From an uncultured delta proteobacterium (lineage in GTDB: Bacteria > Myxococcota_A > Polyangia > Polyangiales > Polyangiaceae): a DNA stretch of 64,000 nucleotides. The stretch spans positions 928,001 through 992,000 of the forward strand of contig CAWJCS010000002.1 in the NCBI GenBank assembly GCA_963841435.1, given 5' to 3'. Shown here piece by piece: positions 53,263 through 63,780 of this stretch. Under the pieces are notes generated by a model that worked only from the letters and a program-made list of their open reading frames with translations, searched no databases and had not been told where the DNA came from. Within the stretch, counting starts at the first letter, position 1. The number at the start of each line of letters is the position of its first letter. Position numbers and translations under genes: made by a program.

Positions 53263-54816
53263 TCAGAAACCCATGTCGGGGGCGGCCCGCGCGGGGGTGG
53301 GCGGCGGCGCTTGTTTTTCCGTCGCACCCGTGGGTCGTGGCTCGCGGGGGCGGTGACGGACGGCCTTCGCGGCGGCGCGCACGGGCTCCGGGCGCGCTTC
53401 TGCGGTGGGCTCGTCGGGTGCGGCCACGCGCGGCGCGGCCGTTTGGGGGGGCGGTTGCGGGGGTGCGTTCGGCACGGGTGGAATTGCGGGGGAGTCCGCC
53501 GTGGCCGCGGGCGCTCCGGGGGGCGTCTCGATGGGCACGCCGGGGGCGGCGGTCGGCTCCGACGCCGTGTCGCTGGCTCGGCCAATCAGTGCCGCGATGA
53601 GCAGCGTCAGAATGCCGAGCGTCATGCCGGCGGCCGCCCACCAGACGAGCGGCGCATGTCGCCGGCGCGTGCGCGGCGTCGGCACGTGTTCGATGACGAC
53701 GTCCGGCGCGGCGGCTCGGAGGTCTCGCCCGGGCCGGCTCCGGCTGCGTAGCGTCCCCCCGTCGGCGCCGGCGGGCAGCGCTGGGTCGGCGGAACGTCCG
53801 GAAACGGGTGGTGCCTCGTCTCCCATCTGAATCGTGGCCGCGGCGTCGGGCGACATGTGACCGAGCATCGTGCTGCCCGGACCTTCGTCCTCGTCCGTGA
53901 TCGACGGCCGCGTGAGACGCCCGGCGGCGCCGGCCGCGTCCTGCAGGGCATCGATCATCTCGTCGGCGCTGTCGAAGCGATCCTCACGGTCGCGGGCGCA
54001 TGCCTTCTCGAACCAGGTGGAAAGCGCGGGTGGAAGCCAGGGCGCCGCCTTGCGGATCGGCGGCAGCTCCTCGGTGCAGATCGCCACGAGCACGTCGCTG
54101 TAGGAGGGGCCGTCGAAGGCATGGGAGCCCGTCACCATGTTGTAAAAGACCATGCCGAGCGAATAGAGGTCCGCTCTGAGGTCCACGCGGCTTGCGCCAC
54201 GGATTTGCTCGGGGCTCATGAAGAGCGGCGTGCCGACGATCGTGCCGGTCTTCGTGGTGGACGGCGCGTGGGCGTCGGTGAGCTTGGCGACGCCGAAGTC
54301 GAGCACTTTTGCCACCCAGCCGAGCTCGTCGTCGTCGCTCTTCGCGATGAAGATGTTCCCGGACTTGAGGTCGCGATGGATGATGCCCTGGGCGTGCGCG
54401 CGCGCGAGCGCTCGGCCGACGTGCGACGTGATGCGCACCGCGTCGCCGAGCCCGACGTCGTGTTGCCTCGTGAGCCGCTCCTCGAGCGTCTCGCCTTCGA
54501 GGTACTCCATCACGATGTACGGAGTGCCGTCGTGGGTGTGCCCGCTGTCGTAGACCTGCACGACGTGTCGCGACTTGAGCCGAGCGGCCGCCTTCGCCTC
54601 GAGGCTGAAGCGGAGCCGGGCATCGTTGGAGCCGGCCTGCTCGGCGCTGATGAGCTTGATGGCAACCTTCTGGCCGAGCGTCACGTGAACCGCGGCGAAG
54701 ACGGTTCCCATCGCGCCGCGTCCGAGCTCGTGCTCCAGGCGGTACTTGTCCGCGATCACGTCGCCCGGCGAGAAACTGCCGCCGGTGGAGCTGGGAAGGA
54801 CGACGGTGTCGCTCAT
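53263..54816 (-). CDS. Transmembrane Hanks-type Ser/Thr protein kinase
   Basis: LGRGAMG, VAIK, HRDLKSGN, DFG, GTPLFMSPE; TM helix; Pro/Ala-rich tail ending APDMGF. Confidence 0.93.
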   Translation of the reverse strand: MSDTVVLPSSTGGSFSPGDVIADKYRLEHELGRGAMGTVFAAVHVTLGQKVAIKLISAEQAGSNDARLRFSLEAKAAARLKSRHVVQVYDSGHTHDGTPYIVMEYLEGETLEERLTRQHDVGLGDAVRITSHVGRALARAHAQGIIHRDLKSGNIFIAKSDDDELGWVAKVLDFGVAKLTDAHAPSTTKTGTIVGTPLFMSPEQIRGASRVDLRADLYSLGMVFYNMVTGSHAFDGPSYSDVLVAICTEELPPIRKAAPWLPPALSTWFEKACARDREDRFDSADEMIDALQDAAGAAGRLTRPSITDEDEGPGSTMLGHMSPDAAATIQMGDEAPPVSGRSADPALPAGADGGTLRSRSRPGRDLRAAAPDVVIEHVPTPRTRRRHAPLVWWAAAGMTLGILTLLIAALIGRASDTASEPTAAPGVPIETPPGAPAATADSPAIPPVPNAPPQPPPQTAAPRVAAPDEPTAEARPEPVRAAAKAVRHRPREPRPTGATEKQAPPPTPARAAPDMGF

Positions 54817-55003
54817 GTCGCGCGCGCCCCCCGTTGCTTCGGGCGTGCTCTTCCAGTCTACGCCGCCCCGGCGGATCGGCGCCAATCTGCGGCAAAACGG
54901 CCAACATTTGCTCGCAGCCCGCGGTTGACCGGCCCCCGCATCGGGGTAGTATCCGCGCCCCGGCGACGAGCCGCTTTCCCCGACGGGACCTTTCTCGAAA
55001 CAC

Positions 55004-55075
55004 GGCGCGGTAGCCAAGTGGTTAGGCAACGGTTTGCAAAACCGTCACACGTCGGTTCGAATCCGATCCGCGCCT
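55004..55075 (+). tRNA. tRNA-Cys (GCA), CCA not encoded
   Basis: Acceptor GGCGCGG/CCGCGCC, anticodon arm ACGGT-TTGCAAA-ACCGT, T arm GTCGG-TTCGAAT-CCGAT, U discriminator. Confidence 0.95.
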
Positions 55076-55263
55076 CCGGCTCGCAGGCTCGCCTCGGGCG
55101 CGGTTCGGTTCAAGCCTGTCGCCTCCGCCAGGTGGCGGAGGCTTCGCGGGCGAATCCGATCCGCGCCTCCGGCTCGCAGGCTCGCCTCGGGCGCGGTTCG
55201 GTTCAAGCCTGTCGCCTCCGCCAGGTGGCGGAGGCTTCGCGGGCGAATCCGATCCGCGCACCA
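55058..55263 (+). repeat. tRNA-linked 93-bp tandem repeat
   Basis: CGAATCCGATCCGCGC at 55058, 55151, 55244; two identical 93-bp units; GGCGCGGT at 55004, 55097, 55190. Confidence 0.95.
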
Positions 55264-55289
55264 TTCGACGACCGAGGGGGAGAAGCGGG

Positions 55290-56162
55290 ATGAAGCTTCG
55301 TTCCGTGCTCCTCACGGCGGTCGCGCTCTTGTGCTTCGCGGGCAATTCCATCTTGTGCCGGCTCGCGCTCGCCGAGCGGCGCATCGATGCGGCATCGTTC
55401 ACTGCGGTGCGCCTCGCGAGCGGCGCCGCACTGCTCGTCCTTCTGGCGCGCCGGCGGCCACGCGCGGCCGTCGGCGCGGCCGCGGCGCGGGGACGCTACC
55501 TGTCGGCACTTTCGCTGTTCGCGTACGCGGCGCCTTTCTCGTATGCGTATCTCGTGCTCGGCGCCGCCATGGGCGCGCTCATCCTGTTCGCCGTCGTGCA
55601 GGTCACGATGCTCGGCTGGGGTGTCGCGCGGGGCGAGCGTCCGACGCCGCTCGCCTGGGTCGGCATCGCCCTGGCTCTCGGCGGGCTCGTCTGGCTCACG
55701 TTGCCCGGACGTTCCGCGCCCGACGCGCTCGGTGCCGCGCTGATGGCGACGGCCGGTGTCGCGTGGGGCGCGTACTCGCTCTACGGTCGTGGAAAAACCG
55801 GAGACCCGGTCGTCGCCACCTCGGCGGCGTTCCTGCGCGCGCTGCCGTTCGGTGCCGTTCTGCTCGGCATCGCCGCGGCCGTGTCGGGGCTGCACGCGGG
55901 CTCGGCTGGCGTCGCGCTCGCCGCAGCATCCGGCGCGATCGCGTCCGGTCTCGGCTACAGCGTGTGGTACGCGGCGCTCCGGCACCTCTCCGCGACGCGC
56001 GCAGCCGTCGTGCAGCTTCTCACTCCCGTGCTTGCCGCCGCGGGCGCCGTGCTCGTGCTCGGGGAATCGTTGTTGACGCGCCTCGTCTTTTCGAGCCTCG
56101 CGATTCTCGGCGGTGTCGCCGTGACGATTCGCGAGCGCGAGGCGCCGCGTCGCATCGCGTGA
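55290..56162 (+). CDS. DMT/EamA family transporter
   Basis: About 10 TM; FAGNSILCRLAL, SGLGYSVWY, AAVVQLLTPV. Confidence 0.9.
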   Translation: MKLRSVLLTAVALLCFAGNSILCRLALAERRIDAASFTAVRLASGAALLVLLARRRPRAAVGAAAARGRYLSALSLFAYAAPFSYAYLVLGAAMGALILFAVVQVTMLGWGVARGERPTPLAWVGIALALGGLVWLTLPGRSAPDALGAALMATAGVAWGAYSLYGRGKTGDPVVATSAAFLRALPFGAVLLGIAAAVSGLHAGSAGVALAAASGAIASGLGYSVWYAALRHLSATRAAVVQLLTPVLAAAGAVLVLGESLLTRLVFSSLAILGGVAVTIREREAPRRIA

Positions 56163-63535: not shown

Positions 63536-63537
63536 AG

Positions 63538-63577
63538 TGGAGCCGAGGGGGATCGAACCCCTGACCTCTTCATTGCG
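63538..63577 (-). mobile_element. 3' half of tRNA-Ala(CGC); probable attachment-site remnant
   Basis: Minus strand CGCAATGAAGAGGTCAGGGGTTCGATCCCCCTCGGCTCCA; no D arm or 5' acceptor strand upstream. Confidence 0.8.
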
Positions 63578-63780
63578 CGTGGACGGCGCTGATGCTGATT
63601 CAGCCGGAATGCTGCTGGATTTGAGTTCTGCTGGACCCTTGTGGTGCCGCCGTCGAAGAGCCCGAAGCACCGGTGGCCAACGGCGCGGCGGACGCGCCCG
63701 AAGACGAGCCGAACTCCGATGCAGGGGTGGCGGCGGTGGAGCCGCCGCCCTTTTGAGGAGTCTCCGCGGGTCGGCGCGGA

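Follow-up and report, generated by a model that had tools for sequence, protein, structure and literature searches.

The window, that is the whole stretch of 64,000 nt analysed here, covers positions 928001-992000 of contig C2 in the source genome (G000), that of a soil myxobacterium, which has 7.78 Mb in 6 contigs and 68.7% G+C. A single tRNA gene is called in these 64 kb by ARAGORN, tRNA-Cys(gca) at 55004-55077, and the Rfam tRNA model scores 64 bits over 55004-55075 (gathering score 29). The gene ends in CGAATCCGATCCGCGCC-T, directly followed by CCG, and is therefore without an encoded CCA. Upstream of it lies a promoter-like site, the sole one returned by a consensus scan within 54600-55600 (one site of the type TTGACC-16-TAGTAT observed, 0.1 expected in shuffles). 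Downstream follows an array of tandem units (table 1), reported by TRF with a period of 93, 2.2 copies, 100% matches and 0 indels over 55058-55259 (score 404). The first unit (55097-55168) is 72 nt long, starts with GGCGCGGT as does the tRNA and ends in the last 18 nt of the tRNA, CGAATCCGATCCGCGCCT; between its 5' arm and its central hairpin stands AAGCCTGTC. The last copy ends CCGCGC (55254-55259)-A-CCA (55261-55263). Just 75 nt lie between tail copies, and no ORF fits there; the spacer has no fold of its own by prediction, and a gene for an EamA transporter begins 27 nt past the array. An initial annotation had described this layout, a tRNA-Cys trailed by tail-copy units with period 93, and all its details are borne out by the sequence, ARAGORN, Rfam and TRF, including the tRNA-like start and end of the 72-nt unit, the hairpin GCCTCCGCC-AGGT-GGCGGAGGC, the CCGCGC-A-CCA end of the last unit and the lack of a CCA in the tRNA gene itself.

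Table 1. Features of the tRNA-Cys locus, in positions of the window
Feature	Position	Strand	Description and source
Promoter-like site TTGACC-16-TAGTAT	54925..54952	+	~50 nt 5' of tRNA-Cys; consensus scan
tRNA-Cys(GCA)	55004..55075	+	72 nt, discriminator U; ARAGORN; Rfam RF00005, 64 bits
Direct copy 1, within tRNA-Cys	55058..55075	+	Tail from T-loop C56 to discriminator, CGAATCCGATCCGCGCCT; start of TRF array
Spacer 1	55076..55096	+	21 nt, CCGGCTCGCAGGCTCGCCTCG; common to G005, alignable with G001
5' arm 1	55097..55111	+	GGCGCGGTTCGGTTC; imperfect inverted copy of the tail
Central hairpin 1	55121..55142	+	GCCTCCGCC-AGGT-GGCGGAGGC; 9 bp, loop AGGT; then TTCGCGGG
Direct copy 2 of tRNA-Cys tail	55151..55168	+	18/18 identical
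Spacer 2	55169..55189	+	Same as spacer 1; TRF
5' arm 2	55190..55204	+	Sequence, TRF
Central hairpin 2	55214..55235	+	Sequence, fold
Direct copy 3	55244..55259	+	16 nt CGAATCCGATCCGCGC, then ACCATTCG replacing CTCCGG; outer edge of the array
EamA-family transporter gene	55290..56162	+	ORF list; Pfam PF00892, E 9.9e-21

The 72-nt unit is predicted to fold into a single rod (MFE -54.8 kcal/mol, z -7.65), and none of 200 dinucleotide shuffles did as well. Seven acceptor-like pairs form in the rod, together with UCGG/CCGA and UUC/GAA, so that the T-arm-like pairing proposed earlier is present in the MFE structure; two G-U pairs fit the sense strand alone. The last unit folds almost alike (-51.7 kcal/mol, z -5.73), with G1 unpaired, the first pair broken and the discriminator base absent. 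The "encoded CCA" that the initial annotation had singled out accompanies these defects, and it looks like a worn version of the ...GCGCCTCCA end that several relatives encode. No tRNA match to the units was returned by RF00005 at E up to 10 or by ARAGORN, and the RtT RNA model (RF00391) matched neither 54700-55500 (E up to 10) nor ten other arrays (E up to 0.5). At permissive thresholds, Rfam gave for the Cys locus and these ten arrays just tRNAs, tRNA-overlapping families and sub-threshold chance matches. Among the candidates set aside, a Twister-sister ribozyme (RF02681) reached 16.8 bits at Cys against a gathering score of 34 (E 1.3, six non-canonical pairs) and was taken as chance. A tmRNA-like reading of the GGATTCGAC motif was dropped as well, the units having no tmRNA match in ARAGORN or Rfam and the real ssrA lying elsewhere, with a module of its own.

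How far the tail copies exceed chance was gauged across the genome. A 13-nt tail copy with at most one mismatch occurs within 800 nt downstream of 8 of the 55 ARAGORN tRNAs and upstream of none (0/55). In local alignment, with each tail also run on the trailers of the other tRNAs as a control (53 tRNAs, two "???" calls being left out), the direct copy at Cys scores 18 against a control 99th percentile of 11. Read as an inverted copy of the tail, the Cys 5' arm is weaker, with a score of 9.5 near the 95th percentile of the trailer control; an exact copy of the first 8 nt of the tRNA is found downstream of 2/55 tRNAs and upstream of 1/55. The arm may equally be described as an inverted tail copy or as the acceptor 5' strand, U8 and the 5' strand of the T-stem, and the two descriptions are not separable with confidence. 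Fold-back template switching was considered as a source of the inverted copy and rejected, since the Cys spacer is not palindromic.

Searches for the Cys unit itself returned little. BLAST found no further copy of the 93-bp unit in the 7.78 Mb of its own genome, just the two tandem copies, and none in 46 genomes of its Polyangiaceae genus; the remaining short matches had E >6e-4. A metagenome scan with 46 nt of the unit gave 0 matches, as did one with the tRNA end joined to the inverted arm of a relative; the best of the public sequencing runs contains 0.23 of the sampled words, and the contigs reach the upstream flank or the tRNA, none the array, so that no excised circle, empty site or copy-number polymorphism was seen. 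Parts of the unit are nonetheless visible in related DNA. One relative (G005) retains the spacer and an inverted arm, GGCGCGGGTCGG, and then runs into a convergent gene. A soil-metagenome contig has an identical tRNA-Cys followed by ...GCTCGCCTCCGGCGCGGGTCGGATTCGGTC, with the 5' arm in the form GGCGCGGGTCGGATTCGGTC; just 30 nt are visible, and its inverted tail continues GATTCGGTCC, as the family interior described below begins in some relatives. The Cys 5' arm is nevertheless inherited, since G000 shares the trailer and GGCGCGG[G/T]TCGG with both G005 and this contig. In a second relative (G001) there is a single alignable unit, composed of the spacer, a degenerate arm, another hairpin (GCCTGC-TGAA-GCAGGC, at the same place as that of G000 and followed by TCGCTTTT) and an exact copy of its own, different tail. 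Thus, the direct copy follows the host tRNA in G000 and G001 despite their differing acceptor stems, and the 5' arm of G001 does not. The G001 unit leaves its CCUCACC tail unpaired and folds ordinarily (z -1.3). The only orthologous full Cys unit does not rebuild its own acceptor stem; what has been preserved in both species is the tail copy and a hairpin in this position, and not the acceptor-like helix. Genes downstream of tRNA-Cys differ among relatives, which offer no alignable empty site.

The kept hairpin suggests a role for the 46-nt interior of the Cys unit. With its G+C-rich 9-bp stem and 4-nt loop, the central hairpin is probably the terminator of tRNA-Cys. No T-run follows the stem in G000 (TTCGCGGG), so that the T-run rule of the terminator scan missed it. 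A transcript terminated there would lack the 3' arm.

The Cys locus is not alone in its plan. In the same genome tail copies stand behind 12 tRNA or tmRNA genes: Cys, fMet, Arg-acg, Arg-tcg, a third, truncated tRNA-Arg, Thr-cgt, Asp, Ser-tga, Ser-gct, Ser-gga, Leu-gag and ssrA. Ten of the 53 tRNAs score 12.5-20 downstream in local alignment; one of the ten, Ser-cga, does so solely because the next gene is tRNA-Ser-gga. In the common plan the trailer is followed by an inverted copy of the host tail, which varies, and then by a direct copy of that tail; the whole is repeated with periods of 93-163 bp in 1-4 units, with 87-100% identity within an array. Besides Cys, arrays lie behind fMet (136 bp, 2.2 copies), Arg-acg (143 bp, 3.1), Ser-tga (154 bp, 2.2), Asp (141 bp, 4.2), Thr-cgt (129 bp, 4.2), Leu-gag (163 bp, 3.6) and the third tRNA-Arg (148 bp, 3.3); single units lie behind Arg-tcg, Ser-gct and Ser-gga, and ssrA, the tmRNA gene, likewise has one module. 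The junction of the direct copy is constant. In every unit identity with the host begins at C56 of the T-loop, and positions 54-55 read GG, GT, AG or TG instead, or retain TT; where tRNAs have ...GGTTC/GAATCC... (the slash marks the junction), units have ...GGTGGC/GAATCC, ...CGGGTC/GAGTCC, ...GGAGC/AAATCC or ...GCGGGC/GAATCC. The Cys unit conforms, with GGGC/GAATCCGATCCGCGCC against GGTTC/GAATCC... in the tRNA and with an inverted arm, GGCGCGGTTCGG, of modest score. In many units the inverted copy lies upstream of the interior and ends at the same T-loop position as the direct copy (GGATTCG/ACC against GGTGG/CGAATCC). It matches 16/16 nt at Ser-gct and 15/16 at Thr-cgt, and at ssrA, Leu and fMet it is evident; the scores at Arg-acg, Asp and Ser-tga (5.5-7.5, control 95th percentile 9) mark it as weak or absent there. 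Analogous units, for which the initial annotation had called, thus exist behind other tRNAs, and the Cys interior recurs nowhere else in the genome or the genus; the expected covariation of the arms with the host holds for the 3' arm and for the 5' arm in part.

Seven of these loci (the three tRNA-Arg, Thr-cgt, Ser-gga, Ser-gct and ssrA) share an interior of about 90 nt, GGATTCGACCTnCGTGCGG ... CCGCAGCTCGAC ... GGGCCGACGGTG, whose conserved end ...GGGCCGACGGTG adjoins the direct copy. It was found by iterated nhmmer seeded with the Arg-tcg unit, and the matches are confined to the surroundings of tRNA and tmRNA genes, bar a single, partial paralogue of the ssrA module. R1, a covariance model made from sequence alone on an interior of ~88 positions (GACCTnCGTGCGG ... 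CCGCAGCTCGAC ... GGGCCGACGGTG), finds it in 13 of the 47 genomes of the genus, G000 counted in, and in 2 of 151 sampled genomes of the order, of which one is G000 and the other gives a weak match. Within G000 it marks 15 places, none of them at the Cys array (C2:983004-983290). Since R1 misses the Cys unit and BLAST shows no copy of it in the genus, the Cys unit is not a sequence member of this family; it shares the plan and not the interior, and its link to the family rests on that plan and on the 30-nt loose end of one metagenome contig.

The hosts of the shared interior are not paralogous: to Arg, Thr, Ser and ssrA in G000 the relatives add Asn, Lys (Lys-ctt in G005) and Arg-cct. Among 26 R1 loci examined in relatives, three own-genome loci not counted and several overlapping each other, 20 lie just 3' of a called tRNA; two of the remainder carry tRNA fragments, and four are weak matches in apparent coding DNA. 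The interior is in sense orientation at Arg-acg, Arg-tcg and Thr-cgt and antisense at Ser-gct, Ser-gga and Ser-cga, with Asn also among the hosts; at the three Ser genes it is inverted between the inverted and the direct tail copies, in G000 and 6 relatives. Units are retained at orthologous tRNAs in several species, and those within one array resemble each other more than those of different species do. Tandem arrays occur in independent assemblies of relatives, in G005 and G056 at Arg-acg and in G044 at Ser. A pattern scan of genome contigs for the family motif gave at least 119 loci; among the matches listed 3 are true members, all in records of Polyangiaceae bacteria, and the other 116 are without family or tRNA. 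The pattern GGCGCGGKTCGGATTCGG occurs in 17/47 genomes of the genus, and the 4 matches inspected all lie in apparent coding DNA with no tRNA near. A translation by eye had raised the idea that the interior is a coding remnant on the reverse strand, which was dropped because family members differ by 1-2-nt indels. The family is therefore of recent origin and limited distribution; it is bound to tRNA tails, adapted to every host and present in both orientations.

Copies of a tRNA tail are the standard marker of genomic islands; here they are island-free, tandem, found after roughly one in five of the tRNA genes in a single genome, accompanied by an inverted copy and cut at a fixed junction. The Cys locus has an intact tRNA and displaced 3' copies (55151-55168, 55244-55259), as islands and prophages do, and neither a recombinase gene between or beside the copies nor cargo between them. 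A genome search for tyrosine and serine recombinases tied none to the modules. Matches to PF00589 number 13; they lie elsewhere or beside Lys-ctt, Arg-ccg, Gly-gcc, Ala-cgc and Gly-ccc, and at these integrase-linked tRNAs, the sites of classical islands, a long displaced copy begins in the anticodon loop. This starting point sets the modules apart as another system. The two serine recombinase genes found genome-wide with PF00239 and PF07508 are adjacent to no array, and around the large one (C6:168833-169624) there is just a tRNA-His-like tail inside a multi-copy repeat. Gene-bearing islets do occur beside modules. The one 3' of ssrA, 3.7 kb long with a PIN-domain gene, is bounded by a further tail copy that follows 14 nt of the module end, and a paralogue of half the module, the tail and the islet edge is found on another contig; an islet of 2.2 kb with a GH8 gene lies between two fMet arrays. 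None of the ORFs of the islets at ssrA, at fMet or in G044 carries a recombinase domain.

Our best explanation, to which we give about half of our confidence, takes the units for att-site-like modules without cargo that arose or spread through recombination at one constant position of the T-loop; at Cys, exchange between tail copies would recently have doubled the block. Site-specific recombination in the T-loop of a tRNA gene leaves such a layout, the element bringing a new tail and displacing the old one; here the copies enclose no cargo. A recombinase supplied in trans may integrate, excise and invert the modules at T-loop sites, and the modules would be miniature cis-mobilisable elements or the remnants of such elements. 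The 93-bp duplication at Cys would be recent and derive from exchange between the 16-18-nt direct copies, either site-specific or by unequal crossover or slippage; a 93-bp circle is very small for recombination, and the tandem copies may therefore owe nothing to an enzyme. The rebuilt acceptor stem would be a by-product of carrying the tail in both orientations. On this view the Cys "mimics" would be repeat modules of DNA and not genes resembling a tRNA; they recall traces left by recombination at the T-loop more than decoy RNAs. Simple integration does not account for the inverted copy, and a function, too, would accord with units being kept at orthologous tRNA genes of several species. The initial annotation had offered, as one of its options, a tiny non-autonomous element that targets tRNA genes. 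This comes close to the recombination reading favoured here: the plan recurs behind 12 tRNA and tmRNA genes with the direct arm always matched to the host, and a shared interior stands at non-paralogous tRNAs in both orientations, which is the interior that the Cys unit lacks.

The same evidence can be pressed further, to a view that we hold possible and rather unlikely: the modules would be self-propagating, cargo-less mini-elements of ~100 bp that carry the target tail in both orientations, are integrated, excised, inverted and amplified in trans by a T-loop recombinase and serve as landing pads for single-gene islets (PIN toxin, GH8 hydrolase). Their arms would imitate the T-arm and acceptor end of the tRNA or tmRNA gene. 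With exchange at C56 of the conserved T-loop, a module would therefore refit its arms to each new host.

Co-transcribed structured RNAs are, in our judgement, improbable. Here the promoter of tRNA-Cys would read through the array, RNase P, RNase Z or other nucleases would release the rods as a small RNA, a decoy or a processing or termination signal, and the other loci would yield analogous trailer RNAs, as RtT does. The stability of the Cys rod (z -7.65) and its two G-U pairs are in keeping with this, as are a promoter-like site solely 5' of the tRNA, the absence of a T-run terminator inside the array, the persistence of modules at the same tRNAs across species and the fit of the arms to the host tRNA at many loci. 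Yet canonical terminators stand between gene and module at fMet, ssrA and the Asn locus of G056, the modules behind Ser tRNAs have their interior on the opposite strand at all Ser loci, the orthologous Cys unit of G001 leaves its tail unpaired, and the last Cys unit has lost its first pair and its discriminator. Nor does covariation in the family exceed that of shuffles. Three proposed helices pair in 70.6% of cells over 48 distinct family sequences, with 157 of 500 shuffles equal and 117 of 500 reaching the covariation score; RNAalifold gives 12 invariant pairs with 7 sequences and no pairs with 55. The units, moreover, are without a match to an Rfam family (E up to 10 at Cys, up to 0.5 elsewhere). 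The minihelix RNAs freed by RNase P/Z that the initial annotation had in mind are accordingly left unsupported.

Plain local duplication, to which we assign a similarly low probability, would need no mobile element, recombinase or function: a chance tail copy would have arisen behind the trailer with its terminator, slippage or unequal crossover would have doubled the 93-bp block, and old tRNA duplications with ectopic gene conversion would have made distant loci alike. The Cys array reads much as this predicts, with units 100% identical and edges exactly in short repeats, and so do the greater likeness of units within an array than between species and the failure to find a recombinase; the tails of the three tRNA-Arg hosts are alike and could permit ectopic conversion. 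What such duplication leaves unexplained is the presence of an interior of ~90 nt, its arms adapted in every case, at hosts that are not related (Thr, Ser, Asn, Lys, ssrA), along with the constant C56 junction, the inverted Ser interiors and gene-bearing islets with the same ends.

Less probable still is a recombination site that works as a folded single strand or by inversion, its tail copies pairing to imitate the T-arm and acceptor end or its interior flipping. The inverted copy does stop at the T-loop position of the direct copy, the arms close the MFE fold in the Cys, fMet, Leu and three Arg units, the interior occurs in both orientations between the same outer copies, and the TTCGAA T-loop is a palindrome. 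The idea is one of pure analogy; three hosts (Arg-acg, Asp and Ser-tga) have a weak inverted copy or none, the arm mismatches are not of one kind, and no enzyme is identified. As the orientation at the Ser loci is fixed across species, flipping would at best be rare. That the second Cys copy is an assembly artefact is very improbable: the assembly does contain gross artefacts, since at C2:851351-853368 a tRNA-Arg gene is interrupted by 1573 A and then 445 T, and a further run, of T/A, lies at C6:1694929-1695473, but arrays of the same kind occur in the independent assemblies of G005 and G056 (Arg-acg) and G044 (Ser), and the outer edge of the last Cys copy differs, as that of a real array would.

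Whichever reading holds, modules of this kind can mislead island finders and callers of tRNA pseudogenes. If they are RNAs, they would form a group of tRNA-trailer RNAs comparable to RtT, which is still unexplained; if miniature elements, they would account for the accumulation of integrase-less cassettes downstream of tRNA and tmRNA genes. With its two perfect units, the Cys array lends itself to a search for ongoing change in copy number.

Searches of the openly accessible full-text literature turned up no account of modules like these, whether in myxobacteria or in other organisms. Several known systems resemble them in part. The RtT repeats behind E. coli tyrT (Rfam RF00391) are 178 bp long in 3.14 copies, each with the 3' end of tRNA-Tyr, and their function is unclear. 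The layout at Cys is the same: non-coding units stand in tandem behind a tRNA gene, and each closes with a copy of the 3' end of that tRNA; yet there is no RF00391 match, and the units are set apart, on the description of the E. coli locus, by being shorter, by a tail copy that starts in the T-loop and by the added inverted copy. The attP of CTX phage folds to imitate dif, and the attC sites of integrons fold as well. As things that may work alike, these share with the modules an imperfect inverted repeat of 60-140 nt, arms that imitate the target and occurrence in arrays; the integron core motifs, an integron integrase and evidence of single-strand recombination are all absent here, so that the modules are not a member of that class.

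Nearer are systems that use the T-loop itself. The closest precedent in the literature consulted is that of the ssrA islands of Dehalococcoides. They are tandem and bounded by a 20-bp repeat of the ssrA tail from mid-T-loop, with a conserved 15-bp motif just 5' of the repeat, and 15 are without integration genes (McMurdie et al. 2011, PMC3146451). Tandem units, a short direct repeat of the tail and an element-end motif directly upstream are common to both, and the many Dehalococcoides units without integration genes are read there as cis-mobilisable (PMC3146451). In contrast to the modules, the Dehalococcoides units are kilobase islands with cargo, many with a serine-recombinase module (PMC3146451); those described here measure 93-163 bp, are gene-free, stand behind a dozen tRNA genes, have an extra inverted copy and show no linked recombinase. 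The tyrosine integrase of mycobacteriophage Ms6, one of class II, crosses over in the T-loop, and a change in the attP core retargets it to other tRNA genes (PMC1762012). As in our units, a block of identity reaches to the 3' end of the tRNA, from the T-arm in Ms6, with strand exchange placed in the 7-nt T-loop (PMC1762012). In Ms6 the core measures 26 bp and belongs to an entire phage that brings its own integrase (PMC1762012). The modules described here lack a phage, cargo and an adjacent integrase, and their identity begins at C56 and not at the 5' strand of the T-stem. Finally, cis-mobilisable elements (CIMEs), in the sense in which the Dehalococcoides study uses the term (PMC3146451), and accretion at att sites offer a parallel in concept, with att sites kept without recombination genes, elements in tandem at one target and a recombinase in trans. 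The CIMEs described are kilobases long, and a module of ~100 bp, little more than a site, would be an extreme case, as a MITE is among transposons. Should the modules be miniature elements that depend on a T-loop recombinase for their movement, site-specific recombination would have in them its counterpart of MITEs.

Modules ending in a copy of the host tRNA tail recur in the source Polyangiaceae genome behind a range of hosts. Those of tRNA-Thr(CGT) retain a perfect T-arm, and their acceptor strand is swapped for a different, still-pairing sequence (GCGGGG/CCCCGC). In both units of the 93-bp repeat behind tRNA-Cys (window positions 55076-55156 and 55169-55249), the Rfam model of the Twister-sister ribozyme matches below its threshold (16.8 bits against 34; E 1.3), which we judged to be due to chance. 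A tRNA-Arg gene with a 3.3-unit array is interrupted by 1573 consecutive A and then 445 T (C2:851351-853368; L033 572-621), and a different contig has another T/A run, 545 nt long (C6:1694929-1695473); both are almost certainly assembly artefacts.

Coordinates of tRNA-tail modules, islets, arrays and tRNA fragments (G000, source genome; G013, a relative's genome; C, contig; L, extracted stretch)
Feature	Location	Strand	Description
tRNA-tail modules	L034-L042		tandem or single, 129-163 bp; hosts Arg-tcg, Arg-acg, Thr-cgt, Ser-gga, Ser-gct, Leu-gag, Asp, Ser-tga, fMet
ssrA locus	G000:C6:281500-286520 (L043, L212)		ssrA, terminator, one module, 3.7-kb islet
ssrA-module paralogue	G000:C2:33542-33609 (L213 2543-2610)		148 bp; different contig from ssrA
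fMet locus	G000:C3:752000-755300 (L214)		tRNA-fMet, two units, 2.2-kb stretch, displaced tRNA 3' half
Family module abutting tRNA-Arg(TCT) fragment	G013:C685 (L060 176-356)
A+T-richer stretches	G000:C5:355179; G000:C6:193908		two, identical
Tandem array	G000:C3:930169-931365		164 bp x 7.3, high identity
Tandem array	G000:C3:965669-966110		180 bp x 2.5, high identity
Tandem array	G000:C6:1309395-1309764		100 bp x 3.7, high identity
Displaced tRNA-Ala(CGC) 3' half	window 63537-63580	minus	anticodon loop to tail
Intact tRNA-Ala(CGC) gene	G000:C2:998770-998843		just past window end

At two loci the modules accompany genes. The ssrA islet encloses a PIN-domain gene and carries a third tail copy at its end. 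The paralogue, composed of half a module, the tail and the islet edge, adjoins an AbiEii-like gene. The fMet locus is a single-gene islet flanked by two arrays: the 2.2-kb stretch holds a GH8 glycosyl hydrolase gene, and the displaced 3' half beyond it has its own unit. In the relative, a module of the family sharing the ~90-nt interior directly joins an anticodon-arm fragment of tRNA-Arg(TCT), replacing the 5' strand of the T-stem; this fragment is a tRNA remnant that has apparently lost the palindromic stretch between the tail and its inverted copy by deletion.

Both A+T-richer stretches hold a tRNA-His-like tail beginning at the T-loop C, distant from the tRNA-His gene and within a multi-copy repeat region. 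The three tandem arrays have no neighbouring tRNA; they have a motif in common in their flanks or units (...GATCGTGATCTGGTC[G/T]TCCAAGAC...) and so form a separate repeat family.

Finally, the displaced tRNA-Ala(CGC) 3' half is followed by a terminator hairpin, and the intact gene adjoins an integrase fragment. Given this displaced half and the intact gene beside the integrase fragment, the ~7 kb at the end of the window resemble a classical integrated island of the anticodon-loop kind.
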